This document shows positions 2,722 through 27,539 of a stretch of 64,000 nt of DNA, one piece after another. The position numbers and the translations under genes were made by a program. Within the stretch, counting starts at the first letter, position 1, and the number at the start of each line of letters is the position of its first letter. Source of the stretch: Thermoplasmata archaeon (GTDB taxonomy: Archaea > Thermoplasmatota > Thermoplasmata > Halarchaeoplasmatales > Halarchaeoplasmataceae); the NCBI GenBank assembly GCA_003553085.1, contig PUPH01000031.1, forward strand, positions 3 through 64,002, read 5' to 3'. The notes beneath the pieces are model-generated. The model did not search any database. It was not told the origin of the DNA and saw only the letters and a program-made list of their open reading frames with translations.

Positions 2722-3525
2722 ATGATATATCTAGGGCCCGGAGGAACACCTCACGGAGTAAAAGGAACGAAAAAGAGTATGGCCTATCTAAATAAGATAG
2801 GACTCAACGCCATGGAAGTGCAGTTCGTTAGAGGGGTGAGGATGAAAGATTCCACCGCTAAAGATATAGGTGATGAGGCTGAAAGAAACGGCATACATCT
2901 CAGTGTCCATGCCCCATATTATATAAATCTGAATTCTGATGATGAAGATGTTATAGAGAAGAGTAAAGAACGTATGATCAATAGCGCTAGAAAGGCGCAT
3001 CTAATGGGTGCAAAAGTGATAGTCGTCCATGCTGGGTATTATGGTGGTAAAGATTCCAAAGAGGTCACCACTATCATCGGTGATGGTGTGCTGGAATGTG
3101 AGGAGACCATCTCTGAAGAAGGTCTGGATGTGAAGATAGGTCTGGAACAGATGGGGAGGGTAAAAAGCTGGGGGACCCTAGATGAGATCGAAGAGGTGAT
3201 GAAGAGGACCAAGATAACGGTTCCCGTGCTAGATTTTGCTCACTACCACGCTAGATACGATGGTAGATTGACCGGTGAAAAGGAGTTCGCCGGACTGCTA
3301 GATCGATACGAAAAGATCCATCCAGGGCCACTGCACAGCCATTTTTCATCTATAGAATACAACGATACCGGTGAACGTGAACATCTCAACCTAAAAGATA
3401 AGGAGCCGGATTTCCAACACTTGGCTCCCTTACTATTGGAAAAAGATTACGATATAACTATAATATGTGAAACTCCAGAGCTTGATAGGGATAGCCTTAG
3501 GATGAAAGATATTTTGGGGCTTTAG
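2722..3525 (+). CDS. nfo: Endonuclease IV (AP endonuclease family 2, TIM barrel)
   Basis: HAPYYINL, VIVVHAGYY, LEQMG, LDFAHYHA and HSHFSSIEY(N)D...EREHLNL motifs are collinear with the Nfo metal-binding motifs. The ORF track starts at GTG 2698; the first ATG is 2722. Confidence 0.8.
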   Translation: MIYLGPGGTPHGVKGTKKSMAYLNKIGLNAMEVQFVRGVRMKDSTAKDIGDEAERNGIHLSVHAPYYINLNSDDEDVIEKSKERMINSARKAHLMGAKVIVVHAGYYGGKDSKEVTTIIGDGVLECEETISEEGLDVKIGLEQMGRVKSWGTLDEIEEVMKRTKITVPVLDFAHYHARYDGRLTGEKEFAGLLDRYEKIHPGPLHSHFSSIEYNDTGEREHLNLKDKEPDFQHLAPLLLEKDYDITIICETPELDRDSLRMKDILGL

Positions 3526-5933: not shown

Positions 5934-7201
5934 TCGGGAGCACCACCATAGCTCTCAAGGGTCAACTGAGAGGGCTTTTGGGGATCTAGTTCCTTCTCCG
6001 GTTTTTCTTCCAACTCTCCCTCTTCTTTGATGTTCTCTATCAGCGAGCGGGTCTGATGCCATATCCGATTTTCATAGTCTGTTGTCGTTTCTCCCTCCTT
6101 CTTTTCACTCTTCAATATCCTGAGGAGTCTTTCACCTAAGTCCCCCTGTGTACCCTCGGGAGTACCTTGTTCCTCGAATACCTTCTTTTCGATCACCTCT
6201 TCCCTTTCCTCATCGACCTTGACCTTTTCCACCCTTTCCGCTTCCAGTGAATTCTTGTTCAAGAAAACCGTTCTTTCACCATCACTCTCCAGTAGGTTGA
6301 TGATACTGGCAAAGTCTATATCTTGAGGTGAACCCTTGAACAGCTTTCCCTGGACCCTGACAAGCACTATATCGCCTTCCAAAACCGCTTCAGCTTTCTC
6401 GATCAACATCTCCTCGACTTCAGAAGCGGTAAACCCTTCCGCATCGACAAGGACTTTTACCATGGAGCAAACATCTACAGGAACGTACTCCGGCCGCCAA
6501 TCCTCCACCATGTAAAATCCACGTTTTTCTTCTCTCTCAAGATCGGTGTAAGAGGAACCGAAAGTTGTCCCGGAGAATATGACCGGTTTTCCATCTTTTA
6601 AATCTTCCAATGGACGGTGTATATGCCCTCCTGCATAGTAGTCATAACCATCGGGCAAGGACGAGATAGGCACCACGTTCTTGTCGGGTATATCGACAGG
6701 TTTCATCTCTGCGATGGGAGAATGGAAAACGAATATACTATCTCCGTCTGGAGTATCAAATTCTATCTGCTCGTAATATCCCTTCTCTAGTCGGTTTTTC
6801 CTCCCGCTCAAACCTGTTATACTGACTCCGGTCTTATCCTTGACGGTGGTGAGTCTATTTTCCGATTCTAGATAATTGACTACGTTCTTGAAGAGCTCCG
6901 CACTCTCCAGAACATCTATCAAGGACGCTCGAGCCAGATTGTAATCGTGGGAGCCGTAAACAGCATATGTACGTATGCCTGCATTCTTGACCTTCATCAG
7001 CAGTTTTACGGTGCGGTTCACTATGTCCATATCGGGTAATGGATTATGGAAAAGATCACCAGCGATTATGATGAAATCTACCTGCCGTTCTATACATTTT
7101 TCTATGGCATCCTCGAACGCCTTTATATTGTATTCTCTCAGCTCTGGCTTACGTCCGAAGGCTCCAAGATGACAATCAGCGATATGGGCGAATCTCACCA
7201 T
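5930..7201 (-). CDS. mre11: DNA double-strand break repair nuclease Mre11
   Basis: Calcineurin-like phosphoesterase motifs: ADCHLG, GDLFH, GSHD, GGHIHR. There is a 4-nt overlap with the rad50 start. Confidence 0.9.
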   Translation of the reverse strand: MVRFAHIADCHLGAFGRKPELREYNIKAFEDAIEKCIERQVDFIIIAGDLFHNPLPDMDIVNRTVKLLMKVKNAGIRTYAVYGSHDYNLARASLIDVLESAELFKNVVNYLESENRLTTVKDKTGVSITGLSGRKNRLEKGYYEQIEFDTPDGDSIFVFHSPIAEMKPVDIPDKNVVPISSLPDGYDYYAGGHIHRPLEDLKDGKPVIFSGTTFGSSYTDLEREEKRGFYMVEDWRPEYVPVDVCSMVKVLVDAEGFTASEVEEMLIEKAEAVLEGDIVLVRVQGKLFKGSPQDIDFASIINLLESDGERTVFLNKNSLEAERVEKVKVDEEREEVIEKKVFEEQGTPEGTQGDLGERLLRILKSEKKEGETTTDYENRIWHQTRSLIENIKEEGELEEKPEKELDPQKPSQLTLESYGGAPE

Positions 7202-8290: not shown

Positions 8291-10012
8291 TTAGTAATCG
8301 ACTGTCCATTCAACGTTTTCATCAGCATCGTTGTAGAGCCAATAACCGCTTCCAGGGGAGAACTCGAACCCTTGTGAATCCACGTAGGCAACGTTGTACT
8401 CCTCAGTAGCTTCGAAGTATCCCACTGTCGTCACTTCAGTCGGCAGATCATGGTGCCCTGCACTATCGCTGGGCAGCCCCACCATGTTCCAGCCTGGTTC
8501 TAGTGTAAGAGTAGTGGTTCCTGGTTCAATACCTTCCACCGTTAACGTATCCTCCACGTTCATCTGGACCCAGACGCCCATGGTGTGGTCCCATGTACCG
8601 AGGTTGTTGAAGTGATCCGCTCTGTCAGGTACATAAGAATACCAACTTCCTGAATCGAAGTACATAACTTTATCGTAATTACCGGCTATTCCATTATCAG
8701 GGTCCTCGAGGATCGCTTCCAACGACGTATCATCAGGTATCAGATTGAACGATACGAAGTTCCAGCCGTCGGCATCTGCGGTCAACTGTATGTCCATGGT
8801 AGTGGTTTCTGTACCGGGCTCCTGAACGGCGTTTTCATTATCTTCTTCCAAGCCGTTAGTACCAACAGCCCTAACGACGTACCACCAAAATATGTCGTCC
8901 GACATACCTTTATCATGATCAAGGTGTTCATAATCAGCTGAACCATCGGCAGTTACGCTTTCTACAAACGTACTTTCGTCCCACGGACCTGACTGCGATT
9001 CAGAGCGATATATATTGTAATGGCTGACATCTCCGGTCAGCTCATCAGGGCTGGCGTCCCACGAGATCAGGTTGTGATCATCACCCTCAGAGGGGATGCC
9101 TTCTGCGGTAACAAGGACGTTATCTATACGCCAGCCAGCTCCGAAGTCCTCATCATACTCCTCTATACCGGCTTCCCAGCGTAGATGTATCGTATCTCCA
9201 GCATGGGCTGATAGGTCAAAGGTCACTGTTTCCCAGTCCACTGAACTACCCCAGGCCGGTTCACCACCTAGTGGATTGCCAAAGCCGTCGTTTATCTCTC
9301 CGTCGTAGCCCTCGTTAGGGGTTATAAGATCGAAATTCCCGTTCACACCATTGGTCGATAGTTTCAGATTTCCGCCGTCGACCATTGTCGTGACGAAGCC
9401 GAGATCGCGCCAGTGGTCGAACGATAGTTCCACTTCCGTGGCCTCTGCAGGTATCTCTATAGCCGGTGAAGTCAGCATACTTATGTAACCCGCTCCTGAA
9501 GATTTGTGATACTGACCATCTCCGAAGTCCCATGAATTGGAGCCGACCGATGAGCCGTGCTGTCGGATATCCCATTCACTTCCACTGGCACTTCCGGAAA
9601 CGTCCGTTGTGTAACCTTTGTCCGCCGATACGTCGTCCTGGAACAGTATAGCTGTATCTCCACCGGTGTGCTGTACTTCCAAGTTATCAGGAGGTGCCGG
9701 CGGTGTGCCGACTATGGTAAATGTGCTGGCACTTTCGTCGTCTCCCCGTCTACCGGCGGTATCCACTGCTTCCACCCGTACCAAACAGTCGCTGCTGTGC
9801 TCGTTGGGCACCGTCCATGTGTACGAGCCCGTGTCAGCCACGTTGGTATCTATGGTCTGCCAGTTACTACCGGCATCTACACTGTACTCCAGATTGATGT
9901 GATCGACTGGGTTGTCACCAGGTGTCGTACTCCAAGATATCGTTTCTTGTGTACCCGCATCGAATGTCTCTCCTCCACTGGGCTGTGTGACCGATATCTC
10001 CGGAGGCTCTCC
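8291..10012 (-). repeat. Shared C-terminal cassette, copy 1 (modules A-B-C-D)
   Basis: Begins at GEPPEISVTQPSGGE and ends ...GYWLYNDADENVEWTVDY. Long identical nucleotide runs with the copies at 11571-13262 and 18408-20123. Confidence 0.8.
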
Positions 10013-11434
10013 GGCTATGATCTCTATATCTATCCTCTGCCCCCATTCATCGCTTATGGAGAAATCCTCAGAATAGGTTTCTGTATATATCCTAAAGTCA
10101 TCATCGAGCTCATAACCCTCTTCCACAAGATTTCCAAAGTTCAGTTCATAATAGCCATTTCTATCTGTATCGATGGATATGGTTTCACCGGTTTCCATAT
10201 TCTCGATGCTGACTGTAACTCCTTCTGCGTGACCACCGCCATCATATCCTACCGTCCCATATACTAAATACGGTACCGGTGGATAAAGCGTTACATCGCC
10301 ATCTCCGAGATCAGTATCTGCCACCCTGCACTGGTAGATCAAAGAGTCATCGACATCTTGGTTTATCGTCATTATTTCATCGGGATGAGGATAGAATCCT
10401 TCCATACCCCATCCACCTGTATAGATTTCATAAACCAACCCATGAGCACCTAGTGCGTCGTAAGCCCAGTCTGCAGCCCCTCCGGGTGCACTGTAACCTA
10501 TCAATTCATGCGGCTGACCATAGACGTACTGGGAACTATCATCTCCAAGACGGGAAGTTTGCGAAGTCATATGACCTGCCATGCCTCTAAACCAATCGTC
10601 ATGAGGTGACGGAGAGCTTGTGTGCATATAAGGTATCAATAGAGAATGATGGTGACTGTGGATGTTTTGATATGATTGAATATCATTAGAGAGCATGAAA
10701 TCTCTCAAATATTTATTCTCATACTCGGAGAAGGGTGCTTCACCACGATAAGTGTCCGAACTCGGATCGGAAACTCCCTGCTCCCATGCTATATCCCAGT
10801 TCCTGTTAAGATCCACACCGATAGATGTTGTAGGGGTCGAGTCGTTAGTGTTCTTTCTCCACCCTGATCGTTCCTCGTAAACGCCGTCTCCATCATATAT
10901 GTAGCCATCTGGATTCTGAATCGGCATTACGAAGATCCTTCTATTGTTCAGTAACCAGTATATGGTTTCATTGGTTTCGTACTCATTGAGCATCCTCCAG
11001 GTTAGATAAGAAGCTACCTGGGGTCCCGACCATTCTCGAGAGTGCATTATCGCATCGATCAAGATCTCTGGTTTATCATCTACTTGAACGTCCTCATCGG
11101 ATGTGATCTCAAGGACCCAAAGGTCTCTACCTTCATAACTGTTCCCGATATGTATCTTTGATACAAGTTCTGGAAATTCTATCACGAGATCATCGTACCA
11201 ATCGTATAATTCTTGAACACTGGGGTAGTGATCCGGGAACGGATACTCAGATCTCTCGGCGATACTTTCATCCCTAGTATCTTCATTTAAGATATCACAA
11301 GATCTAGACTCATCTATGCACAGGTTCGTATAGATCGAATCGTCTCCACTCTGCACGACACTTACCGAAAAGATCGACAATACTAAAAAAACCGTTATCA
11401 TTAGAACGCCTAGCTTAGTTTTCTCCTCGAACAT
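8291..11434 (-). CDS. Secreted M14 zinc carboxypeptidase (paralog A). Domain order: signal peptide, M14 domain, carboxypeptidase-regulatory-like domain, shared 570-aa C-terminal cassette.
   Basis: N-terminal hydrophobic signal. M14 motifs IMHSREWS (HxxE) and NPDGY. GGAG Shine-Dalgarno 9 nt before the ATG. C-terminal cassette shared with the three downstream genes. Confidence 0.85.
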   Translation of the reverse strand: MFEEKTKLGVLMITVFLVLSIFSVSVVQSGDDSIYTNLCIDESRSCDILNEDTRDESIAERSEYPFPDHYPSVQELYDWYDDLVIEFPELVSKIHIGNSYEGRDLWVLEITSDEDVQVDDKPEILIDAIMHSREWSGPQVASYLTWRMLNEYETNETIYWLLNNRRIFVMPIQNPDGYIYDGDGVYEERSGWRKNTNDSTPTTSIGVDLNRNWDIAWEQGVSDPSSDTYRGEAPFSEYENKYLRDFMLSNDIQSYQNIHSHHHSLLIPYMHTSSPSPHDDWFRGMAGHMTSQTSRLGDDSSQYVYGQPHELIGYSAPGGAADWAYDALGAHGLVYEIYTGGWGMEGFYPHPDEIMTINQDVDDSLIYQCRVADTDLGDGDVTLYPPVPYLVYGTVGYDGGGHAEGVTVSIENMETGETISIDTDRNGYYELNFGNLVEEGYELDDDFRIYTETYSEDFSISDEWGQRIDIEIIAGEPPEISVTQPSGGETFDAGTQETISWSTTPGDNPVDHINLEYSVDAGSNWQTIDTNVADTGSYTWTVPNEHSSDCLVRVEAVDTAGRRGDDESASTFTIVGTPPAPPDNLEVQHTGGDTAILFQDDVSADKGYTTDVSGSASGSEWDIRQHGSSVGSNSWDFGDGQYHKSSGAGYISMLTSPAIEIPAEATEVELSFDHWRDLGFVTTMVDGGNLKLSTNGVNGNFDLITPNEGYDGEINDGFGNPLGGEPAWGSSVDWETVTFDLSAHAGDTIHLRWEAGIEEYDEDFGAGWRIDNVLVTAEGIPSEGDDHNLISWDASPDELTGDVSHYNIYRSESQSGPWDESTFVESVTADGSADYEHLDHDKGMSDDIFWWYVVRAVGTNGLEEDNENAVQEPGTETTTMDIQLTADADGWNFVSFNLIPDDTSLEAILEDPDNGIAGNYDKVMYFDSGSWYSYVPDRADHFNNLGTWDHTMGVWVQMNVEDTLTVEGIEPGTTTLTLEPGWNMVGLPSDSAGHHDLPTEVTTVGYFEATEEYNVAYVDSQGFEFSPGSGYWLYNDADENVEWTVDY

Positions 11435-11537
11435 TTTTTTATCTCCTATGAACCGACGATTAACTTAGCTAGAATTTACCGGGTTAATAAACGTTGGTTG
11501 CAAATTTACATACCTTCTTCCTAAAACCAACTATATT

Positions 11538-11570
11538 CAAAAAAAAAATAAAAAAAGAAAGAAGGGTTTT
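11538..11570 (-). terminator. Long oligo-T tract after the S8 peptidase stop codon
   Basis: The minus strand reads AAAACCCTTCTTTCTTTTTTTATTTTTTTTTTG. Confidence 0.55.
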
Positions 11571-13262
11571 TTAGTACTCAACGGTCCAATCTACTGTGTG
11601 ATCCCCGTCGTTGTACAGCCAGTAGCCTTCTCCAGGTGAGAACTCGTATCCGGCTGCATCCACGTAAGCGATGTTGTATGCTTGCGCAGGATCGAAGTGA
11701 CCGACCGTAGTTACTTCCGCCGGGAGATCGTGGTTCCCGGCTGTAGAGCTAGGTAGTCCCACCATGTTCCATCCTGGATCCAGAGTTATGGTCGTCGTAC
11801 CTGGTTCGTTACCTTCAACCGTTAGCGTATCGTCCACGTTCATACGTATCCAAACACCCATGGTGTGGTCCCATGTACCAAGATTATTGAAGTGGTCCGC
11901 TCTATCAGGCACATACGAGTACCAACTCCCAGAATCGAAGTACATCAGGCTGTCGTAGTTACCAGCGATGCCGTAGTCTTCGTGTTCAAGTATGGATTCC
12001 AGATCTGTGATACCAGGTTCTAGGTTGAAAGATACAAAGTTCCAACCGTCGCCGTCCCCGGACAATTGGATGTCCATTGTCGGTAGGGCATCTCCTCCAG
12101 GTTCCTGTACCGAATCGGTGTTCTCTTCTTCCATGCCATTGGTACCAACAGCTCTAACGACATACCACCAGAATATTTCATCAGCCATACCTTTATCCTG
12201 ATCCAAGTAGTCATAAGTGGCTGAACCGTCGGCGGTTAGACTGTCTATCAGAGTGGTTTCGTCCCAAGGACCGTTCTGGTCTTCGGAACGATAGATATTG
12301 TATCCACTGACTTCATCGGGGTCATCAGGACTGGCGTCCCATGTGATCAGGTTGTGCTCGTCTCCGTCGGAAGGTACTCCCTCGGCTGTGACGGATATAT
12401 CATCGATACGCCATCCGGCACCTCCATCAGTGGTCCAGTCTTCAGCTCCTGCATCCCAACGTATCTGTATCGTCTCTCCGATGTTATCCGTCAGGTCGAC
12501 TGTGACCTCTTCCCAGCCTACCGTGCCGCCCCAGGCATCTTCGCCCTCTATGGGGTTGCTGTATCCTGTGCCGATGGTATGGTCGTACCCCGGTTCCGGG
12601 TCTTCGATCAGATCCCAAGTTTCTCCATCGGTTGATATCTTAAGGTTAACTCCATCCCAAGTATCTGCGATATCTCTCCAGTGCTGGAAGGTGAGTTCTA
12701 TGCTGTCTGCACTCTCCGGTATCATGATCTCTGGAGATATCAGCCAGGCGCCTCCACCTACCTTATCGTACTGTCCATCACCCCAGTCCCAGGAGTGATC
12801 TCCTATCACAGATCCATGATCTCTGATATCCCATCCGACTAGACCGCCGCTTGTTCCGCTAATATATCCAAGGTCCTCGGATACATCGTCAGCGAAGAGG
12901 ACTCCGTCTCCTAAGCCTTCGTGCTCCACGACTAAGTTGGAAGGCGGTTCGGGAGGTGTACCTTCTATGGTGAACACGCCGCTTATGTCTTCACCGGATC
13001 TACCTGAAGTATCCCTCACATTAGCTCTGATCAGAGATTCTGTGCTCTGCTCGTTCGGTACAGTCCATGTGTAACTGCTGGTGTCCGGTAGACCAGACTC
13101 GATCAGGTTCCAAGAGTCTCCGTTGTCAACACTGTAATAAAGATCAACATGATCGACCGGATCGTCGCCTTCCTGGGTATTCCAAAGGATATCTTCCTGT
13201 GTATCAGCGGTGAGCACTTCTCCGCCACTGGGTTGAGATATCGTTATCTCCGGAGGTTCTCC
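11571..13262 (-). repeat. Shared C-terminal cassette, copy 2
   Basis: Begins PGEPPEITISQPSGGE and ends ...GYWLYNDGDHTVDWTVEY. Confidence 0.8.
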
Positions 13263-15476
13263 GGGGACTTCATCGACCGCGTTATACATGACCAAGGCAT
13301 AATCCTGCCCGGTTCCCACGACAGGATCCGGGACATCGTACCCGTGTATTCGGACGGTGTAAAAACCTTCCTCTAGGTCTGTATCGCGTATGAAGACGTT
13401 CTCAACATTATTCACATCGTCCCATCCATCTCCGTTTGAATCAAAGGAACCGTATGTGGATTCCCCGGGTTCGGACCAGCTTTCTACTAGATTGTTACCT
13501 CTATAAACGTCACCAGTGGGTGAAATAACTTCCAGATTCAAGTCGTTCTTCAACGTCGGGTCATCTCCATCCATAGCTTGTGAATCGGACCACACCAAGG
13601 TTATCCTTAAAGGCTCTCCATCGTCCTGGTACTCTATCATATATTCATCAACATCTCCGGTTGATAGGACGGAAGTTTCATCTACGAACACTGAATCTAC
13701 GGGTGGATCGACAATCTGTGGTAAGTTAACCATACCCCAGCCTTCATCCTGATTGGGTATATGAGGACTGTTTTCACCACCGTTGTTGTTTGCCAGATTG
13801 TATGCCGTATTTACCATCAAGGCCTTTACCATGGATGGATTAGGCAGGCTTCCGTAGTGGGTATCATACCAATCAACGATAACGGTTCCTGCTCCGGCTG
13901 CAGCGGGACAAGCCATAGACGTTCCCGACATAGAACCGTATCCTCCACCAGGCATGGTAGATTCCACGTTATCACCAGGTGCTACAACATCAGGCTTTAC
14001 ACGATTATCATTGGTCCATCCACGAGAACTAAAACCAGCCATGTTATCAGGATTACCTCCACGTGATCCATAGTTCTCAGTTGCACCGATGGATATGATG
14101 TTTTTACCGTTAGCCGGACTGCCGATAGTATTAGATCCACTCCCAGAATTACCGGCCGCCACAAATATGACCATCGGTTCTCCGTCACCAGCGTCTCTAG
14201 TTAGCATGTCGAATTCTTCGTCTCCTAAGGTGTATTCTCCTGCGGTTTCCGCACCCCATGAATTTGAGTGAACGTATGCACCGCTGCGGTCCCTGGCTTC
14301 GGTGATTATCCTAACATATGAATCCGTTGGACCGATCCAACTTCCTCCGCCATCGAATATCCTAAGTGCGAACAGGTCGGTTTCAGGGGCAGACCCCTGT
14401 CCAGAATAGTAATCCTCATAGACCGTTGATCCGGTCCCATGATATGTATCGCCGCCCACCGAGCCGGTACAGTGTGTTCCGTGACCGTGACCGTCGTTCC
14501 ATGAACCTTCAGCGTCTGTCTCGTCACCAAAATCATAACCTCCTAGTACTCTACCAGTGAAGTCTTGGTGACCTGCATTCGGAGTAGTCCCATCGCCTAA
14601 CCCAGTATCAGCCACAGCAGTGACTACTCCAGCCCCTTTATATCCTATCTGGTTGGCAAAGGAACCATAATCTCCGTGCTCTCGGTAAGCTGTATCTGGA
14701 TCATCGTCATCATCGTAAACCCATAGACCGCCACCTATCGTCTGGGTAGCCATCTCATCCCATAGTTGGGGTTCTACATAGTTTGATATATAGTAAACAT
14801 CGTTTTTGTTCGCGAGCTCCACGAATTCAGATTCATCTTCAACGACGGTGAGTAATTTGTTTCCATCGGTGGTCCGGATCCTAACCATACCCGGCTCTAG
14901 GCCTTCAGCGAGTTTGAAACCAGGTTGGTATATTCCGATCCAATCAACGAACCATAGATCCTCAACACGATCAGCAAGTTCGGGTGTCATAACTACCTCA
15001 AAAGCGAAGTTTGGTTGATAGTTTATTATCTTAACACCCATCTCCTCCAGCTCAGCTCTCCATGAAGAAGATACCGGTCCGAGCACATGTATGAGGTATA
15101 TTCCCTCTTCACCAGGGCTGTAGCCGTCGATGGTTAATTCCGTATCGAATCGAGGTAAACCCTCGTTTATATCGAATACGTGTCCCTTGATACTGAGTTC
15201 CGTCCTTCCGATCAACGGATTCATTTCCATACCCTGATTTTGTAACGTATTGGCTGTTTCAAGATCCATATCTACAAGAGCGTAATCTCTGTATCTATAC
15301 AAGATCTGGGCATTCGATCGTTTCAGTCTGCTTATTTCTTCGATACTTTGTATATCCACCATAAAGTACTCCGTACTATCAGATCCTACAGAGTTGAACC
15401 CCGTAACAACGAAAACTGACAACAGCAGTACTACTGCGGTGAACACACACAGCATCTTTAGAACTGTCTTTTTCAT
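11571..15476 (-). CDS. Secreted S8 subtilisin-like serine peptidase. Domain order: signal peptide, S8 domain, P-domain-like region, shared C-terminal cassette.
   Basis: Catalytic triad context DTGLGDG, HGTHCTG, GTSMACP and oxyanion AAGNSG. SD GGTGGAG 6 nt before ATG 15476. The ORF-track start 15488 is a GTG. Confidence 0.85.
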   Translation of the reverse strand: MKKTVLKMLCVFTAVVLLLSVFVVTGFNSVGSDSTEYFMVDIQSIEEISRLKRSNAQILYRYRDYALVDMDLETANTLQNQGMEMNPLIGRTELSIKGHVFDINEGLPRFDTELTIDGYSPGEEGIYLIHVLGPVSSSWRAELEEMGVKIINYQPNFAFEVVMTPELADRVEDLWFVDWIGIYQPGFKLAEGLEPGMVRIRTTDGNKLLTVVEDESEFVELANKNDVYYISNYVEPQLWDEMATQTIGGGLWVYDDDDDPDTAYREHGDYGSFANQIGYKGAGVVTAVADTGLGDGTTPNAGHQDFTGRVLGGYDFGDETDAEGSWNDGHGHGTHCTGSVGGDTYHGTGSTVYEDYYSGQGSAPETDLFALRIFDGGGSWIGPTDSYVRIITEARDRSGAYVHSNSWGAETAGEYTLGDEEFDMLTRDAGDGEPMVIFVAAGNSGSGSNTIGSPANGKNIISIGATENYGSRGGNPDNMAGFSSRGWTNDNRVKPDVVAPGDNVESTMPGGGYGSMSGTSMACPAAAGAGTVIVDWYDTHYGSLPNPSMVKALMVNTAYNLANNNGGENSPHIPNQDEGWGMVNLPQIVDPPVDSVFVDETSVLSTGDVDEYMIEYQDDGEPLRITLVWSDSQAMDGDDPTLKNDLNLEVISPTGDVYRGNNLVESWSEPGESTYGSFDSNGDGWDDVNNVENVFIRDTDLEEGFYTVRIHGYDVPDPVVGTGQDYALVMYNAVDEVPGEPPEITISQPSGGEVLTADTQEDILWNTQEGDDPVDHVDLYYSVDNGDSWNLIESGLPDTSSYTWTVPNEQSTESLIRANVRDTSGRSGEDISGVFTIEGTPPEPPSNLVVEHEGLGDGVLFADDVSEDLGYISGTSGGLVGWDIRDHGSVIGDHSWDWGDGQYDKVGGGAWLISPEIMIPESADSIELTFQHWRDIADTWDGVNLKISTDGETWDLIEDPEPGYDHTIGTGYSNPIEGEDAWGGTVGWEEVTVDLTDNIGETIQIRWDAGAEDWTTDGGAGWRIDDISVTAEGVPSDGDEHNLITWDASPDDPDEVSGYNIYRSEDQNGPWDETTLIDSLTADGSATYDYLDQDKGMADEIFWWYVVRAVGTNGMEEENTDSVQEPGGDALPTMDIQLSGDGDGWNFVSFNLEPGITDLESILEHEDYGIAGNYDSLMYFDSGSWYSYVPDRADHFNNLGTWDHTMGVWIRMNVDDTLTVEGNEPGTTTITLDPGWNMVGLPSSTAGNHDLPAEVTTVGHFDPAQAYNIAYVDAAGYEFSPGEGYWLYNDGDHTVDWTVEY

Positions 15477-15655
15477 GCTAGACTCCACCTGCTAAGTTTT
15501 CTCCTCAAAACAAAATTTTAAGGCTTTGTTTAATCATGCAATGTAGTTATACAATATAAAGATTTACATCAAGATGGCATATAGAACAAACTATTTATCC
15601 ATGAATCCACAATATATTAGAAACCGCGATTAAAAATAGAAAGGAAAAGATGGGT

Positions 15656-17377
15656 TCAGTAGTCGATAATCCATTCAACACTTTGGTCGGCGTCGTTGTA
15701 GAGCCAGTAGCCCTCTCCAGGTGAGAACTCAAAGTTCGACGGGTCATGATCGTAGGCCAAATTATATTCAACGAAATCATCAAAATATCCTATACAGCTG
15801 ACTTCTCCGGGTAGGTTATGATTTCCAGATGTTGAACTAGGCATACCGACCATGTTCCAACCCGGGTGTAATACAATATCAGTACTGCTCAGTAAATACC
15901 CTTCAATAGTCAATGTATCGTCTGAAGTCATACGTATCCAGATACCCATGGTGTGATCCCAGTCTTGGAGATTGTTGTAGTGCTCATCTCTACCAGGGAC
16001 GTATGAAAACCATTCATGGCTTTCAGCGTCGTAGTACATCACCTGATCATATCGTCCTTGTATCCCAGTATTTGGATCATTTAAAATTGCAGTGATGCTA
16101 GTATCACCATATAACGGAAATAAGTTATAAGATACAAAATTCCAACCGTCGGCATCGCCGTCTGCGTACAGAGGGATATCAAAGGCACCTATATAACCTG
16201 TTTCCTCACCAACATCGGTGTTCTGCTCTTCTAGTCCATTTACTCCAACAGCACGCACTACGTAACACCACCAAACATCATCGGCCGTACCTTTACCTAT
16301 GTCGATGTAACTGTAATCTGCTGAACCGTCAGCGGGTAAGCTGTCTATGAGAGTACTGTCATCCCATGGACCTGTGTGTTCATCCGAACGATAGATATTG
16401 TAATGGCTCACCTCATCTGGATCATCCGGGCTAGCATCCCAGGTCAATAAATTATGATCGTCTCCGTCACCGGAAACCTCTCCTGTAACTAAGATATCAT
16501 CTATCCTCCAGCCCGCATGTGTTGAACCATAATTGTCAACACCGGCGTCCCATCTGATCCAAACACTTTCACCTTCGTATCCGCTGAGATCAACGGTTAC
16601 CTCTTCCCAGTCTGTAGAATGTCCCCATGCTGGTTCTCCCTCAAGTGGATTATCCCATCCACCTTCTACCGTACCATCGTATGCAGGATTCGGATCAGTT
16701 ATGAGATCCCATGAGCCCTCTGGGCCGTCCGTCGATATCTTAAGGTTGCCGCCGTCCCATATTGAGCCATCATCTTCAAATTCCCTCCAGTGCATGAATG
16801 TCATCTCTATCTCAGTCGCATCTGTCAGATCGATCTCAGGTGTTATCAGCCAGCTGAGTCCGCCATTGCTGGGATCGTTATAGTTACCATCGCCGAAGTC
16901 CCATGAATAATCTCCGACTGCGGATCCGTGGGTACGGATACTCCACTCGCTGGCACCGTCAGTCTGTCCTGTGGTATATCCAAGGTCGCCGGATTCCACA
17001 TCATCCTCAAAGATGACTTGAGTAGCTTGTCCGATGTGGTCCACTATCAGATTAGAAGGTGCTGATGGGGGGATACCGTGGATGGCAAAAACGCCGCTGA
17101 TATCTTCGTTCCAGCGTCCCAAGGAATCTACAACACGGACTCGGATCTTACATTCCAAACTATCCTCGTTGGGAACACCCCAGGTATAACTTCCAGTATC
17201 TTGGATATCGCTATCGATGTTATACCATGAATCTCCGGTATCCGTGCTGTACCATATTTCTATACCGTCTATGGGATCTTCCCCTTTTTCAGTAGTCCAT
17301 GTGATGTCTTCTTCTTCGAAGGCATACCATTCTTCTCCACCTATGGGAGAAGTGACGGTTATGGATGGAGGATCCCC
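15656..17377 (-). repeat. Shared C-terminal cassette, copy 3 (most divergent)
   Basis: Begins GDPPSITVTSPIGGEE and ends ...GYWLYNDADQSVEWIIDY. Confidence 0.75.
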
Positions 17378-18376
17378 TTCTGCTACGGGTTGAGCTAGGT
17401 GTCCTAGGCTAGCGATAGCGTGCCTGGTCGTATGGGTTATCTGTGGAAGTGTGAGTTTGTCCAGCGTGTCATCTGCCGTGTGATAGTAGGGGCTAAAGAC
17501 GGTTTCTATGGACAGAGTGGCATTGTATCCCTCGTCCCAAAAGCTGGAATGGTCTGAACGCCATTCAGTGCTGTCGTACTCATAGGTGAAGTTGATTCCT
17601 ATGTTATCATAGGCCTCGCTTACATCCGCCTTGTAATCCAGCATCCAGTTGGAGGGCGTATTTGCGTGAAGTGTGATGGCCAAGTCAGGTTCCGCGTATC
17701 CAACCATATCGTAATTGAGTTTACCCAACAACTGTTCCTCCGTTTCATCGATGTTAGAAGCATAGTAACTGCTACCGTGCAGTCCCTGTTCCTCCGCACC
17801 CCATAGTGCAAAACGGATGGTACGTTCAAAACTGTATTGGGACATTATCCTCGCAGCCTCTATAGTCACTGCTGAACCACTGCCGTTATCGTCTGCACCA
17901 GGAGCCGCCCCGCCCCAATTGTTTATACTATCAAGGTGCCCGCCGATGATATATGTCTGAGGCTCTAGGTCTGGATTGGTTCCAGGATGTACCGCTATAA
18001 CATTCGTGCTGCTGTGCCCACCAGATGTGAAGTTCTGCATATAGGTATCTAAACCGAAGGAGCTAAGTTCTTGATATGCCCATAGAGCTGCATCATCGAA
18101 ACCACTGGTACCGGTTAATCTGGTCGGTACGCCGTTTTCATCCTCAAAACTTTGTAAAGTATCGATGTAATCATATATATTTGATTCTTCGACTTGATCT
18201 ATCATCATCTGTATCTGAGGATCATGTCCTGGAAACACAGGTGTATCGAGGATATACTCATCGCTTTCATGGTCTAAAATAGGTCCTCCAGAGGTCAAAG
18301 ATACTACCTGTGAGAAAACAGATAGCACTAACGATAAACCGACAAGAAGAACCAGTGATTTCATCTTTTTTTTCAT
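15656..18376 (-). CDS. Secreted M28 zinc aminopeptidase. Domain order: signal peptide, M28 domain, shared C-terminal cassette (divergent copy).
   Basis: M28 metal-ligand motifs GGHLDS, GADDNGSGS, EEQGLHGS and DMVG. Only 31 bp separate it from the upstream M14-B gene, with a GGAG SD in the gap. Confidence 0.8.
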   Translation of the reverse strand: MKKKMKSLVLLVGLSLVLSVFSQVVSLTSGGPILDHESDEYILDTPVFPGHDPQIQMMIDQVEESNIYDYIDTLQSFEDENGVPTRLTGTSGFDDAALWAYQELSSFGLDTYMQNFTSGGHSSTNVIAVHPGTNPDLEPQTYIIGGHLDSINNWGGAAPGADDNGSGSAVTIEAARIMSQYSFERTIRFALWGAEEQGLHGSSYYASNIDETEEQLLGKLNYDMVGYAEPDLAITLHANTPSNWMLDYKADVSEAYDNIGINFTYEYDSTEWRSDHSSFWDEGYNATLSIETVFSPYYHTADDTLDKLTLPQITHTTRHAIASLGHLAQPVAEGDPPSITVTSPIGGEEWYAFEEEDITWTTEKGEDPIDGIEIWYSTDTGDSWYNIDSDIQDTGSYTWGVPNEDSLECKIRVRVVDSLGRWNEDISGVFAIHGIPPSAPSNLIVDHIGQATQVIFEDDVESGDLGYTTGQTDGASEWSIRTHGSAVGDYSWDFGDGNYNDPSNGGLSWLITPEIDLTDATEIEMTFMHWREFEDDGSIWDGGNLKISTDGPEGSWDLITDPNPAYDGTVEGGWDNPLEGEPAWGHSTDWEEVTVDLSGYEGESVWIRWDAGVDNYGSTHAGWRIDDILVTGEVSGDGDDHNLLTWDASPDDPDEVSHYNIYRSDEHTGPWDDSTLIDSLPADGSADYSYIDIGKGTADDVWWCYVVRAVGVNGLEEQNTDVGEETGYIGAFDIPLYADGDADGWNFVSYNLFPLYGDTSITAILNDPNTGIQGRYDQVMYYDAESHEWFSYVPGRDEHYNNLQDWDHTMGIWIRMTSDDTLTIEGYLLSSTDIVLHPGWNMVGMPSSTSGNHNLPGEVSCIGYFDDFVEYNLAYDHDPSNFEFSPGEGYWLYNDADQSVEWIIDY

Positions 18377-18383
18377 TTTTGAT

Positions 18384-18387
18384 CTCC
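18384..18387 (-). promoter_or_regulatory. Shine-Dalgarno GGAG for the M28 gene, inside the 31-bp gap after M14-B
   Basis: The minus strand reads TAAATGAGCATGTATATATCCAAGGAGATCAAAAATG. Confidence 0.5.
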
Positions 18388-18407
18388 TTGGATATATACA
18401 TGCTCAT

Positions 18408-20123
18408 TTAATATTCGATCGTCCAATCTACATCATGATCCGCGTCGTTGTACACCCAATAACCGCTACCGGGCGAGAACTCGAATCCACTGGCATCGGT
18501 ATAAGCGACGTTATACTCCTCACTTGCATCGAAGTATCCCACTGTCGTTACTTCCGCCGGTAGGTTGTGGTTCCCGGCTGTAGAGCTAGGTAGTCCCACC
18601 ATGTTCCATCCAGGATCCAGAGTTATGGTCGTAGTACCGGGTTCGTTACCTTCGATCGTTAGCGTATCGTCCACGTTCATCTGGATCCAGACACCCATGG
18701 TGTTGTCCCACGTACCTAGGTTGTTGAAGTGATCCGCTCTATCCGGTACATAAGAATACCAACGTCCAGAATCGAAGTACATAACTTTATCGTAATTACC
18801 GGCTATACCGTTATCCGGGTCCTCAAGTATATCCACTAGATCGGTGCTGCCGAGCTCAAGATTGAAGGATACGAAGTTCCAGCCGTCGGCATCTGCGGTC
18901 AACTGTATATCCATGGTAGTGGTTTCTGCACCCGGTTCCTGCACCGCGTTTGTGTTATCTTCCTCAATACCATTGGTACCTACCGCTCTAACGACATACC
19001 ACCAGAATATTTCATCAGCCGTACCTCTTTCGGGGTCGATATACTCGTAACCTGTAGAACCGTCGGCGGTAACACTGTCTATCAGGGTACTTCCGTCCCA
19101 CGGTCCATCACTGGATTCAGCTCGATAGATATTATAGTGACTGACTTCGTCAGGATCATCTGGACTAGCATCCCAGGTGATCAGATTGTCTTCGTCTCCA
19201 TCCGAGATGATGCCTTCCGCCGTCACCAGGATATCGTCGATACGCCAGCCCTGGGCACCACCATCATAATCTTCGACTCCAGCGTCCCATCTAAGCCATA
19301 TTGAGTCTCCGGCATATTCACTCAGATCTACCGTTACCTGTTCCCACCCCTGAGAATCAACCCAGGCTGGCTCTCCTTCTATGGGATTTTCAAATCCGGT
19401 TCCAAGGGTTACATCATAAGATGGGTCGGGGTTTTCGATCAAAGACCATTCTCCGTTGGGATCCGCACTTTCCACGGATATCTTTAGATTTCCTCCGTCG
19501 TAATAGTTCGTCCATGAGTCATCGTAATCGAAGTCCCTCCAGTGCTGGAATGTCAACTCCACCTCCTCGGCTTCTTCGGGTATATCGATCTCGGGAGATA
19601 TCAACCAGCTGACTTCTCCTACTTTCTCATAGCCTCCATCGCCCCAATCCCAGGAACTGTCTCCGACTATGGATCCGTGGTCTCTGATATCCCATTCGTT
19701 CGTGCCTTCACTGCTGCCTGTGGTATATCCAAGGTCCTCCGATGCATCATCATGGAATAATACTTCTTGTCCTGAACCAACATGCTGTACATCTAGATTT
19801 TCCGGAGGGTCTGGAGGTGCGCCTTCGATGGTGAAGACATCACTGATGTCTTCTCCACTCCTACCTACCGTGTCTATTACGTTCAACCTGACACGACATT
19901 CCGTACTATCTTCATTGGGTACGGTCCATGTATAGCTTCCCGTATCTGCTACTCCGGATCCGATAGATGCCCAGCTATATCCATCATCTACACTGTACCA
20001 TAGATCTATAGAATCGATAGGATCGTCCCCCTGTTCGGTAGTCCAAGTGATATCTTCTTCAGTGCCCGCGGTGAAGGTCTCTCCTCCTTCAGGTCGGTTT
20101 ATGGTGATATCCGGGGGATCCCC
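18408..20123 (-). repeat. Shared C-terminal cassette, copy 4
   Basis: Begins GDPPDITINRPEGGE and ends ...GYWVYNDADHDVDWTIEY. Confidence 0.8.
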
Positions 20124-21656
20124 CACCTCTTCCAGAACGATATCTATCCTCTGGCCCCATTCTTCACCGATGGTAAAATCTTGATCATTATGATCGGCAG
20201 AAATACGGAAGGTGTCGTCGGTCGTGTATCCACTATCTACAAGATTTCCAAAGTTCAATTCGTAGTAGCCGTTACTGTTCGTCCCGATGGAGATCGTTTC
20301 TGATGTATCGACGTTCTCTACCGTTACTGGAACATCCACCACAGAACCTCCTGAAGAATATTCGACCGTACCGTAAACCAGGTAGGGGACCGGAGGATGG
20401 AGGTGGTTTGTACCGTCTCCGAGATCTATATCGGCTATCCTTCCTTGATATATCAGGGCGTCATCAACGTCTTTATTGATGGTCATTATCTCATCTGGTG
20501 GTGGATAAAATCCATGACCTCCGGTTTCAAGTTCGAAAACCATCGAGAAAGCTCCGGTTTCATCATAGACCCAATCTCCAGCACCACCAGGTGCTGAGTA
20601 ACCGATCTCTTCTCCCGCCTGACCATAGCTGTAGGGATCATTCTCATCCCCCATCTGAGAGGTCAGAGAAGTCATATGTCCTGCCATCCCTCGGTACCAA
20701 CTATCATGGGGCGATGGATCAGTAGAATTACACCAAGGGATCAACATGGTCCCGGCATAGCTGTGGATGTTCTGATACGTGTCGATATCGTTTTCAAGTA
20801 TGAAATCCCTGAGAGACTTAGTCTCATACTCAGAAAACGGTGCCTCGCCGTGATAATCGTCTGCACCACCTCTTGAATTGCCGTCTTCCCAATGTATATC
20901 CCAATTCCGATTAAGATCTACACCTACAGCATCATCAGGGATCGTATCGTTACGGTTTTTCCGCCAATTATTTTGGTTTCCGTAATCGCCGTCACTATCA
21001 TAGATATACCCATCAGGATTGACCATGGGCATAACGTAGATCCTACGATTGTTGAGCATCCAGTGGATGGTCTCGTTGGAGTCGTATTCGTCCAGTATCC
21101 GCCACATGAAGTAGGCTGAAGCCTGAGTGGATGACCATTCTCTTGCGTGCATCGATCCATCCACAAGGAAACCAGGTTTGTGATCCACCTGTGTATCTTC
21201 GTCAGAGGTCACCTCCAGGACCCATAGATCTCTGCCCTCCCAGGACTGGCCTATGTTGATCTTCGATACAAGATCGGGATACTCGTCGACCAGGTCATCG
21301 TACCAATCATTCAACTCACTCACACTGGGATAGTGGTTGGCAAAAGGATAGTCGGTTTCAAGGATCTTTTCTCTGTCCTCTTCCTGCCTAATAACCTCGA
21401 CCTCCATACCTGAAGATTCCAGATAAGACAAGGTTGAATCATCGGTTTCAACTAATAGATTCATACCATCTCGCACCAATATTTCAGTATTGGCTTCGTT
21501 TATACTCTGTAAGTCCGCTAGAGATCTCATCTGGACTCCAGCTTTGATCACCTCTACATCTTCATCTTCGTAGTGGTTTACAGCTACAAAACAGACAGAA
21601 AACATCAAAAGCAGAACTACCGTTATTACCCCGAGGGGGATCTTTGTATTGTGCAT
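18408..21656 (-). CDS. Secreted M14 zinc carboxypeptidase (paralog B). Domain order: signal peptide, M14 domain, carboxypeptidase-regulatory-like domain, shared C-terminal cassette.
   Basis: SMHAREWS and NPDGY motifs. Collinear with and similar to paralog A. GGAGG SD 6 nt before the ATG. Confidence 0.85.
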   Translation of the reverse strand: MHNTKIPLGVITVVLLLMFSVCFVAVNHYEDEDVEVIKAGVQMRSLADLQSINEANTEILVRDGMNLLVETDDSTLSYLESSGMEVEVIRQEEDREKILETDYPFANHYPSVSELNDWYDDLVDEYPDLVSKINIGQSWEGRDLWVLEVTSDEDTQVDHKPGFLVDGSMHAREWSSTQASAYFMWRILDEYDSNETIHWMLNNRRIYVMPMVNPDGYIYDSDGDYGNQNNWRKNRNDTIPDDAVGVDLNRNWDIHWEDGNSRGGADDYHGEAPFSEYETKSLRDFILENDIDTYQNIHSYAGTMLIPWCNSTDPSPHDSWYRGMAGHMTSLTSQMGDENDPYSYGQAGEEIGYSAPGGAGDWVYDETGAFSMVFELETGGHGFYPPPDEIMTINKDVDDALIYQGRIADIDLGDGTNHLHPPVPYLVYGTVEYSSGGSVVDVPVTVENVDTSETISIGTNSNGYYELNFGNLVDSGYTTDDTFRISADHNDQDFTIGEEWGQRIDIVLEEVGDPPDITINRPEGGETFTAGTEEDITWTTEQGDDPIDSIDLWYSVDDGYSWASIGSGVADTGSYTWTVPNEDSTECRVRLNVIDTVGRSGEDISDVFTIEGAPPDPPENLDVQHVGSGQEVLFHDDASEDLGYTTGSSEGTNEWDIRDHGSIVGDSSWDWGDGGYEKVGEVSWLISPEIDIPEEAEEVELTFQHWRDFDYDDSWTNYYDGGNLKISVESADPNGEWSLIENPDPSYDVTLGTGFENPIEGEPAWVDSQGWEQVTVDLSEYAGDSIWLRWDAGVEDYDGGAQGWRIDDILVTAEGIISDGDEDNLITWDASPDDPDEVSHYNIYRAESSDGPWDGSTLIDSVTADGSTGYEYIDPERGTADEIFWWYVVRAVGTNGIEEDNTNAVQEPGAETTTMDIQLTADADGWNFVSFNLELGSTDLVDILEDPDNGIAGNYDKVMYFDSGRWYSYVPDRADHFNNLGTWDNTMGVWIQMNVDDTLTIEGNEPGTTTITLDPGWNMVGLPSSTAGNHNLPAEVTTVGYFDASEEYNVAYTDASGFEFSPGSGYWVYNDADHDVDWTIEY

Positions 21657-23295: not shown

Positions 23296-24993
23296 ATGTT
23301 TGAGATGAAGGATAATCCACGAATATCCGTGATGATGATCACTGCTTTGATCTTGATTACGCTATCGATCTCAACTTCAGTTCAAGGGTTCCAAGAATAT
23401 CCCTGGGGTTCGTACGGTGGAGATCCAAGGAACAGTGGTTTAAGCCCTCACGACACTTCACATCATGAAGGTGAGATAATATGGGACTATGAAGTCGATA
23501 GAGCCATAAGCGCTTCACCCATAATCGGACCTAGAGATCAAGTGTATGTCGGAACGGTAGGAGGCTATCTTTACTCACTATCTTCGGCCGGGCTTCAAAG
23601 ATGGGTACACTCAGTCCAAGGAGCCATAAGGTCCACACCGGCCATAGGGGTTAACGATATGATCTACGTTGGGTGCGACGACGGTATGCTCTATGGGATC
23701 TCAGATCATGGTGAGCGTGTTTGGGAGCACGAGATCGGTGGAAATGTGAGATCATCTCCTACGGTCGGAGAGGATGGGAGTTTGTATATCGGTTCCAGCT
23801 CGGGACATGTTTACTCCTTTTCGCCTCATGGTGATCTTAGATGGAAAACATATGTGGGTGGAAGGATCACCGGTTCACCGGCCTTAAACGATGATAATCT
23901 ATATGTCGGTGTTAATATAGATGCATTCGGCGATAACGCCACGCTGATATCCATGGACCTTGGTGGTGAGGTAAGGTGGAATCATTCTATCAATACGAGC
24001 ACACTTTCTTCCCCATCGATAGATGATCAAGGAAACCTATATATCGGTGGCGGTAATAATTTGTACTCATTCGAGGCCGATGGTTCACCCCGATGGACAT
24101 TTCAAACAAACGGCACGATAAGATCATCGGCATCCATAGGGCCGAATGCAGAGATATACGTCACCTCCATGGACAAAAATCTGTACGCTTTAAATACCGA
24201 TGGGCAGATCAGGTGGTATTTCGAAACGGGAGCTTATATAAGCGGCTCACCGTCGATCTGTTCGGATGGAAACGTGTTCGTCGGTTCTGCCGACGGTAAA
24301 CTGTACTCACTGAATTATGAGGGGGATCTAAGGAGTACCGTCAACGTCGGTGAGAACATAATCAGCACACCAGCCATCGGCTCAGATGGAAAGATATATT
24401 TTGGTACAGTGGGAGGTGTTTTTTATGCAGTCAATGGGCACGTCGAGGACGAGAAGACACCACCTATACCCGTATCGGTCAGTGTTGAAGTCGGAGCAGA
24501 TCATATAAACATCAGCTGGGAATTACCGTCTGAAGAACTTGAGGTGGATCACTTCAACATATACAGAACCGATGTAGATGGTAATAGATCCTACCTATTT
24601 TCCATAAGCGGAGCGAGGCGTTACTACAGAGATGGTATGGTGGATCACGATGTGAAGTATATCTATCGCATTTCTTCCGTGGATGAAAGAGGGGAGTCCT
24701 TACCGAGCGAACCTATGATCATATCTTTAACTCCACCCGAAGATAAAGAAGAGATATCTGTTTTTGAAAGGGGGGAAATCCTTCTGCCCATACTGTTAGT
24801 AACCATCATCTCCTTCGTGATGATCTGCAAACATCTTAAAAAGAAAAGAGAAGAAAAGAATCGACTCCCTATGGAGATAGGGTTGCGTTATACCTGCCCA
24901 TACTGTGCCAATAAAGTGTATTCATCAGGTGATCCCGGAGAATGTGTGAACTGTACTCGATGTGGTAGTCTGATCAAGGGGTTGAATCACTGA
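23296..24993 (+). CDS. Membrane-anchored PQQ-like beta-propeller protein. Domain order: signal peptide, about 8 propeller blades, FN3-like domain, TM helix, C-terminal zinc ribbon.
   Basis: Repeated (D/N)G.(L/I)Y.G(S/T) blades. The FN3-like stretch contains HFNIYRTD. TM segment LLPILLVTIISFVMICKHL. C-terminal CPYCANKV...CVNCTRCGS. Confidence 0.7.
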   Translation: MFEMKDNPRISVMMITALILITLSISTSVQGFQEYPWGSYGGDPRNSGLSPHDTSHHEGEIIWDYEVDRAISASPIIGPRDQVYVGTVGGYLYSLSSAGLQRWVHSVQGAIRSTPAIGVNDMIYVGCDDGMLYGISDHGERVWEHEIGGNVRSSPTVGEDGSLYIGSSSGHVYSFSPHGDLRWKTYVGGRITGSPALNDDNLYVGVNIDAFGDNATLISMDLGGEVRWNHSINTSTLSSPSIDDQGNLYIGGGNNLYSFEADGSPRWTFQTNGTIRSSASIGPNAEIYVTSMDKNLYALNTDGQIRWYFETGAYISGSPSICSDGNVFVGSADGKLYSLNYEGDLRSTVNVGENIISTPAIGSDGKIYFGTVGGVFYAVNGHVEDEKTPPIPVSVSVEVGADHINISWELPSEELEVDHFNIYRTDVDGNRSYLFSISGARRYYRDGMVDHDVKYIYRISSVDERGESLPSEPMIISLTPPEDKEEISVFERGEILLPILLVTIISFVMICKHLKKKREEKNRLPMEIGLRYTCPYCANKVYSSGDPGECVNCTRCGSLIKGLNH

Positions 24994-27524: not shown

Positions 27525-27539
27525 ATTAGGGATGATCAT

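Follow-up and report, generated by a model that had tools for sequence, protein, structure and literature searches.

The closest analogue in design to the proteins discussed here is the type IX secretion (T9SS) cargo of Bacteroidota, such as the gingipains RgpA/Kgp, CPG70 and PPAD, in which a signal peptide, a catalytic domain, and Ig-like and jelly-roll 'cleaved adhesin' modules are followed by one shared domain at the extreme C-terminus (PMC5445135, PMC4804311, PMC11982257). The T9SS C-terminal domain (CTD), an Ig-like sandwich of 70-100 aa, is found once per protein, at the far C-terminal end of many unrelated cargo proteins that leave by Sec, and has conserved terminal residues (PMC5445135, PMC4804311), and its truncation by two residues blocks export (PMC5445135). 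Here, we analyse a stretch of 64,000 nucleotides (contig PUPH01000031.1; the window in what follows) from a haloalkaliphilic Thermoplasmata archaeon (Candidatus Saliniplasma, order Halarchaeoplasmatales), in which four consecutive minus-strand genes at 8291-21656 encode peptidases, referred to by ascending coordinate as M14a, S8, M28 and M14b, that all end in one shared cassette of about 570 aa. The named relatives of the source are Candidatus Saliniplasma or Thermoplasmata metagenome-assembled genomes (MAGs), the former a soda-lake halophile assigned to Halarchaeoplasmatales (PMC11332174). The last module of the cassette, for which we also use the term CTD, is an undescribed domain, and it is this lineage-wide domain, rather than the four-peptidase kit, that is the object of interest at the locus.

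Sets of extracellular peptidases as such have been reported before. In sedimentary Thermoplasmata (Thermoprofundales/MBG-D and Ca. Proteinoplasmatales), the sections of the reports that treat peptidases predict M14A, M28, S8A and C25 enzymes to be extracellular, and protein catabolism by Proteinoplasmatales has been shown by isotope probing (PMC9123169, PMC6461988). The logic of a complete degradation kit is therefore not new, and the preliminary description, which knew of no described system with this combination, holds on this count for the cassette and the CTD. The same sections sort the peptidases by MEROPS family and signal peptide and do not mention a shared C-terminal cassette or domain (PMC9123169, PMC6461988); our own literature search found no description of the shared cassette or its terminal domain. 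Unlike the sedimentary Thermoplasmata, the window archaeon is a soda-lake halophile (PMC11332174) with very acidic proteins, and in all four peptidases Asp and Glu amount to ~19% of residues against ~4% for Lys and Arg.

The four cassettes are 561-571 aa long and can be aligned end to end with 56-71% protein identity among the four copies, and no other open reading frame (ORF) of the window carries one. In an AlphaFold model of the M14b cassette, built with 31 relatives and having a mean pLDDT (predicted local distance difference test score) of 88, confidence dips at three borders, which divide the cassette into four beta-rich modules, as had been proposed from the first reading of the sequence. 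The CTD, the fourth of these, spans 173 aa in M14b (18411..18929, minus strand) and lies at 15659-16195 in M28, 11574-12095 in S8 and 8294-8812 in M14a, all on the same strand. It is modelled as an all-beta domain whose two halves are homologous to each other (hhalign E-value of 1e-5 over 69 columns), each half starting with GWN-h-V-[SG]-x-P and ending with G-x-W. The four window proteins all end in W-T-[VI]-[DE]-Y, with W-T-I-E-Y in M14b. Searches of Pfam-A (2025), NCBIfam 20.0 and the PDB sequences with a single CTD sequence, 21 members or a profile found nothing, and no Pfam or NCBIfam family of any kind could be placed on the CTD at E-values up to 5 to 10; comparison with PDB folds gave weak matches. 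The three other modules belong to common domain types, namely Ig-like, MAM/carbohydrate-binding module (CBM)-like and FN3-like, and none of the four was found to be a known domain with a documented sorting role.

The CTD is widespread in one archaeal lineage. A HMMER scan of 1.84 billion cluster representatives retrieved 2503 relatives at E<=1e-3, of which 172 reach E<=1e-30, and in nearly all of them the domain lies at the end of a protein of 500-2400 aa. In species-representative genomes at least 399 loci were confirmed, and among the best 80 loci alone each of four MAGs has at least 8-10 copies. All named relatives come from MAGs of Thermoplasmata/Thermoplasmatota (Candidatus Saliniplasma, Halarchaeoplasma, Haladaptatiplasma and Proteinoplasmatales SG8-5, the last with a CTD of ~32% identity), and an additional protein search with a profile of divergent CTDs yielded 7 matches without widening the taxonomic range. 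Three CTD loci (L001, L043 and L077) fall in bins assigned to Sumerlaeota, Halanaerobiaceae and Bacteroidetes; their contigs are short and come from the same soda-lake sediment samples, and since L001 shares 83% DNA identity with the window S8 CTD, mis-binning is likely. A bacterial origin was rejected on these grounds and because the window carries archaeal genes (Mre11-Rad50, NurA-HerA, RFC, TFB and a class III prepilin peptidase). CTD genes are commonly found in arrays, and in one case (L086 1-20948, JGI metagenome 3300033145) five of them lie in a row, their products being a beta-helix protein, S8 subtilases and two small proteins; here the profile of the first CTD half matches the second half, and the GC content of 58% extends the family beyond the halophilic lineage.

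The position of the CTD within its proteins is strongly constrained. Of 279 proteins with a complete CTD, 261 end within 3 aa of it and none has two copies; for the genome loci, 88 of 92 ORFs end in this way. In 231 proteins where the CTD extends to the stop codon, Trp is found at position -5 in 94%, Val or Ile at -3 in 93% and an aromatic residue at the very end in 86%. An N-terminal hydrophobic segment is present in 142 of 153 complete CTD proteins. The passengers, by contrast, are highly diverse: among 50 representatives we find Glug repeats (11), S8 peptidases (10), beta-helix/NosD (4), C25 peptidases (4), PQQ propellers (3), and PAD_porph, Amidase_3, GH18 and C1 domains (2 each), along with M14, cadherin, PKD, CARDB and others, to which the first CTD search adds M28 and alpha/beta hydrolases. 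Proteins P0014-P0016, P0027, P0028 and P0030-P0032 display two odd architectures, with either a jelly roll within a loop of the CTD or the CTD placed before PAD_porph.

By its distribution, the CTD has a function that is independent of passenger chemistry and tied to export and to the end of the chain, which is the signature of a localisation device. We thus favour, with a probability of roughly one half, the reading that the CTD is a lineage-wide C-terminal surface-retention or sorting tag, which in the window is placed on four Sec-exported peptidases by way of a common stalk. We infer that the proteins, each a catalytic head on a stalk of Ig-like, MAM/CBM-like jelly-roll and FN3-like modules with the CTD at the end, leave the cell by Sec, and that the CTD would hold the enzymes at the cell surface, either by attaching to an envelope component, for example a glycocalyx, lipoglycan or S-layer, or through recognition in a sorting step. 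The jelly-roll module would probably help to hold polymeric substrate, and external protein would be digested beside the cell by the joint action of the endopeptidase and the two kinds of exopeptidase, N- and C-terminal. The preliminary description took the constant C-terminus to suggest common targeting, tethering or co-assembly; as the CTD is present on dozens of unrelated exported passengers across Thermoplasmata, however, it is not a feature that binds a peptidase kit together.

The membrane topology of the four peptidases also bears on this reading. The N-terminus of each has one strongly hydrophobic stretch of ~19-21 residues (mean Kyte-Doolittle value of 2.3-2.9 over a 19-mer) preceded by Lys/Arg, in agreement with the signal peptides noted earlier, for which the Sec route is the probable one; beyond aa 50, none of the four has a further hydrophobic segment (19-mer mean hydropathy >1.6). 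The peptidases are therefore without another hydrophobic anchor, whereas two other surface proteins of the window use C-terminal transmembrane (TM) helices. In S8 a long region precedes the catalytic domain, and the N-terminal part of M14b exceeds that of M14a by ~60 aa; the putative pro-segments of S8 and M14b show no similarity to each other in BLAST. In subtilases and M14A carboxypeptidases, such N-terminal segments are usually propeptides that are removed on activation. Removal of the propeptide would sever an N-terminal tether, and the C-terminus alone would then be left to retain the enzyme.

Several observations, nonetheless, weigh against a retention or sorting tag. About 5% of CTDs are internal, as in the signal-MAM-CTD-PAD_porph proteins, where the CTD is more divergent, and in three proteins a jelly roll is inserted in a loop of the CTD; the domain is therefore a foldable module and not merely a terminal signal. 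The N-terminal stretches, at 19-21 residues, suffice for uncleaved signal anchors, in which case the CTD would be the distal tip of the molecule. No conserved partner, processing gene or candidate machinery was found beside the CTD genes in 79 genome loci. It is also possible that a structural relative of the CTD has gone unnoticed, the fold search having been made against the PDB.

Comparison with described anchoring and sorting systems places the CTD apart from each of them. Its parallels with the T9SS CTD are extensive, for it too is present in single copy, ends many unrelated Sec-exported proteins and has conserved terminal residues, and the classes of cargo overlap in C25, PAD_porph, M14 (CPG70), KP-43-like S8 and GH18. 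However, the archaeal CTD is 173 aa long, consists of a duplicated beta unit and has no sequence or fold match to the T9SS domain, and it belongs to an archaeon, which lacks an outer membrane and is not known to have a T9SS. By analogy, then, it would work like a T9SS CTD but is not one. Like archaeosortase substrates (PGF-CTERM and its relatives), the CTD proteins would have an archaeal C-terminal sorting device common to many surface proteins, but the archaeosortase signal is made up of a short motif, then a TM helix, then a basic tail, which the four peptidases lack, ending instead in a globular domain. Cellulosomal dockerin enzymes likewise share one duplicated C-terminal module across many hydrolases; the CTD has no dockerin or cohesin homology, differs in fold and size, and showed no scaffold in the census of 79 loci. 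A further resemblance is to the choice-of-anchor J/sortase-dependent M36 and the InhA (M6) metallopeptidases, in that the jelly-roll module of the cassette matches NF038128, the models of myxosortase- and rhombosortase-dependent M36 peptidases, and InhA-like_MAM. The choice-of-anchor J module is known to precede various C-terminal anchors, but what follows it here is none of LPXTG, PEP-CTERM, MYXO-CTERM, GlyGly-CTERM or T9SS. Scans of the four proteins and 21 CTDs against Pfam and NCBIfam revealed no SLH or other known S-layer or cell-wall binding domain. Archaeosortase signals, dockerins and SLH-type anchors were thus rejected on the basis of hydropathy, the all-beta model and the Pfam/NCBIfam scans.

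Other functions for the CTD can be considered against the same evidence. The invariant Trp, Asn and Tyr of the repeated GWN motif are typical of sugar-binding surfaces, and this, with the repeated pairing of the CTD with a CBM/MAM-like module and the occurrence of some internal copies, is what one would expect if it were a lectin- or CBM-like module that binds substrates or particles. The enzymes would then be released, or anchored by N-terminal stretches long enough to span a membrane, with the distal CTD sticking to detritus, biofilm matrix or other cells. Ordinary binding modules, however, are positionally flexible and often repeated, whereas the CTD is a single-copy domain, C-terminal in 94% of cases and with a conserved last-residue motif; its passengers, which include peptidases, a chitinase, a muramidase-type amidase and adhesin-like beta-helices, act on unrelated substrates, and propeptide removal would be expected to detach S8 and M14b from any N-terminal anchor. 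We regard such a binding role as unlikely, if worth keeping in view. The internal two-fold duplication, the presence of a single C-terminal module on many different hydrolases and the frequent arrays of CTD genes would also suit a dockerin-like module that plugs into a scaffold, giving a multi-enzyme surface complex as a proteolytic counterpart of the cellulosome. We consider this improbable, given that Pfam and NCBIfam give no dockerin or cohesin signal, that an all-beta domain of 173 aa has little in common with the calcium-binding helical pair of dockerins, and that no neighbour with repeated, scaffold-like partner domains recurs in the 79 loci.

The strict C-terminal placement and the conserved last five residues mirror T9SS CTDs closely enough that the CTD might instead be a translocation or processing signal for a dedicated archaeal sorting machine, removed on maturation while the passenger is covalently joined to a lipid or glycan, as with PorU or archaeosortase. 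The parallel in cargo (C25, PAD_porph, M14, S8 and GH18; PMC5445135) points the same way, as does the fact that C25-family proteins themselves bear the CTD, one of them matching the PorU model at 8e-15; such proteins would be the first candidates for a CTD-processing enzyme. This match is, however, explained by ordinary C25 homology, 173 aa is large for a signal, and no candidate machinery lies near CTD genes. Moreover, given the single membrane of this class of archaea, no second translocation step would be needed after Sec, and removal of the CTD as a signal appears quite unlikely. The CTD could finally have no common function at all, the cassette being a spacer that duplication and domain shuffling have passed from one neighbouring paralogue to another. 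The relatedness of the cassettes, being independent of catalytic class, does indicate shuffling, and the four-gene array is confined to close strains; but a domain conserved to ~30% identity across distant Thermoplasmata, with invariant residues, a fixed position and thousands of family members, is constrained to a degree that implies selection on a function, and a mere spacer is very hard to credit.

The remaining modules of the cassette are described here on the M14b copy, on the minus strand. Module 1 (aa 514-612, 99 aa; 19821..20117) is an all-beta, Ig-like domain with a pLDDT of ~97 and matches Kre9_KNH (PF10342) with 27.7-31.7 bits against a cut-off of 24.6, Big_7 being a weaker match. 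Module 2 (aa 613-815; 19212..19820), marked by HWRD...WRIDD, has a MAM/CBM-type jelly-roll fold, with structural matches among carbohydrate-binding modules and MAM domains and to the gingipain K1 adhesin. The window copies lie below the curated cut-offs (17.8 vs 26.9 bits for PF20773 and 26 vs 30 bits for NF038128); among the 31 cassette relatives, InhA-like_MAM is matched in 16 and choice-of-anchor J in 7, with E-values down to 4e-8. Module 3 (aa 816-909, 94 aa; 18930..19211), with its YNIYR motif, is FN3-like at the level of fold. By alignment, the cassette occupies aa 336-906 of M28 (15659..17371), aa 745-1305 of S8 (11574..13256) and aa 477-1047 of M14a (8294..10006), all on the minus strand. 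Foldseek searches of the PDB with the whole cassette retrieved just generic Ig/FN3 strings. Outside the window, all four modules of the cassette are found together on a C25 peptidase and on a protein of unidentified N-terminal type, while PETase-like hydrolases have related modules in a different order. P0002 has the full cassette, and as the scanned set contains no other C25 protein, it is presumably the protein with the PorU match in NCBIfam (8e-15).

The M14a cassette is closest (71% identity) to that of a C25 peptidase from another Saliniplasma MAG, and the S8 and M14b cassettes pair at 71%; by these identities, cassette relatedness cuts across catalytic class. DNA identity among the four cassettes is 60-89%, with no long exact repeats, and the four-gene array recurs in two independent assemblies at 99.9% and 97.5% DNA identity. 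The array is therefore not an assembly artefact, and recent gene conversion was likewise rejected, the diverged cassettes being found in three assemblies. The cassettes are genuine, diverged paralogous tails. The array is limited to near-identical strains, and more distant M28 genes with the cassette stand alone or beside other CTD genes.

ORF boundaries and Pfam matches agree with the four same-strand peptidase genes recognised originally. M14a (8291..11434) encodes a predicted exported M14A-type carboxypeptidase of 1047 aa, with Peptidase_M14 (PF00246) at aa 77-360 (E-value of 1e-66). S8 (11571..15488) encodes a predicted exported KP-43-like subtilase with a long N-terminal pro-region and Peptidase_S8 (PF00082) at aa 285-585 (3e-38); its GTG start gives 1305 aa, and an ATG four codons further down (15476) gives 1301 aa, as in the L081 gene call. 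M28 (15656..18376) encodes a predicted exported M28 aminopeptidase of 906 aa with Peptidase_M28 (PF04389) at aa 125-321 (9e-37), and M14b (18408..21656) a predicted exported M14A-type zinc carboxypeptidase of 1082 aa with PF00246 at aa 116-396 (3e-73; 20469..21311). Each of these matches is far above its gathering cut-off (225 and 247 bits in the two M14 proteins against 21.6, 132 against 21.8 for S8 and 127 against 21.3 for M28).

Catalytic residues were judged by alignment to solved structures, namely 1pca for M14b, 5fax and 1wmd for S8, and 2ek8 for M28. M14b keeps H69, E72, R127, N144, R145, H196, Y248 and E270 of procarboxypeptidase A (1pca), and its catalytic motifs are also readable in M14a, the catalytic halves of the two sharing 55% identity. 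The best solved relatives of S8 are SubHal (5fax; 8e-41) and KP-43 (1wmd; 7e-39), and alignment to these shows that the Asp-His-Ser triad and the oxyanion Asn are kept (DTG, HGTH, GTSMA and AAGN). In M28 the two-zinc set of 2ek8 is kept as H(LDS), D(DNGSG), EE, D(MVG) and H(TADD). The same set of metal ligands is known from 1amp, and the two-zinc set is that of bacterial leucyl aminopeptidases. The four proteins thus belong to three catalytic classes and keep complete catalytic residues throughout, as first proposed.

The M28 gene begins 31 nt downstream of M14b, whereas the remaining intergenic gaps of 136-167 nt have, on reading the sequence, T-tracts past the stops and TATA-like boxes; because of this difference, the array would suggest about three transcription units. 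A scan for sigma-70 promoters and terminators was discarded, the result being at chance level and the model not applicable to an archaeon. Of the Shine-Dalgarno motifs, GGAGG, thought at first to precede every gene, is found before M14b alone (6 nt upstream), and M14a, S8 and M28 have GGAGA.

The window is otherwise an ordinary archaeal chromosome, with genes for Rad50-Mre11, a HAD hydrolase, CysRS, NurA-HerA, RFC, TFB, an H+-PPase, a class III prepilin peptidase and TPR proteins, and no peptide transporter is found within its 64 kb. Of the two surface proteins with C-terminal TM helices mentioned above, one (23296-24993, plus strand) has a signal sequence, a PQQ-type beta-propeller, an FN3 domain, a C-terminal TM helix and a cytoplasmic Zn-ribbon tail; PQQ propellers of other genomes end in a CTD in place of the TM helix, an example of a 'choice of anchor'. 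The other (29072-31618, minus strand) is a surface protein of 848 aa with CARDB/NPCBM-assoc/DUF11 matches, whose C-terminal TM helix is accompanied by a strongly acidic tail, and may be an envelope or S-layer-like component.

Apart from further CTD genes, the only recurrent neighbour of CTD genes in the 79 loci is a MalT-like STAND-TPR protein, present in 13, which may regulate exoenzyme genes. In L057 (3540-6521, minus strand) this is a ~990-aa MalT-like STAND ATPase (AAA_16 and TPR_MalT) with an apparent inserted domain that adjoins a CTD gene, and relatives are found in 12 other loci (for example, L048, L050, L035, L022, L005, L017, L023 and L027). The TPR proteins at 551-2698 and 36236-40414 of the window are distantly similar to it. 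Also in the window are four tandem genes of TldD/PmbA-family metallopeptidases (46559-52020, minus strand; 459, 461, 442 and 466 aa), probably two TldD/PmbA pairs, with no obvious tie to the exported peptidases. Archaeal Rad50-Mre11 and NurA-HerA genes usually form one operon. Here, ~19 kb that include the peptidase array, CysRS and the propeller gene separate Rad50-Mre11 (3522-7201, minus strand) from NurA-HerA, which is on the opposite strand (26487-29039, plus strand). For two plus-strand ORFs, at 33431-34987 (518 aa) and 62818-63552 (244 aa), Pfam gave no match at E<=1e-3.

For the breakdown of protein in sediments, Thermoplasmata count among the chief candidates, and the CTD bears on how their exoenzymes stay near the cell. 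The domain provides a sequence handle for listing the surface proteome of uncultured Thermoplasmata, a concrete object for binding and localisation experiments, and a candidate display tag for the engineering of halophilic enzymes. More tentatively, and with odds clearly below even, the CTD may be the address tag of an unrecognised, Thermoplasmata-specific sorting or surface-display system with its own receptor or processing enzyme. If so, it would correspond in function to T9SS CTD, sortase or archaeosortase signals, and through the system these archaea, which are abundant in sediments and salt lakes, would display a large share of their exoenzymes and adhesins. The close parallel to gingipain-type T9SS cargo would clearly exemplify a design reached convergently by bacteria and archaea.

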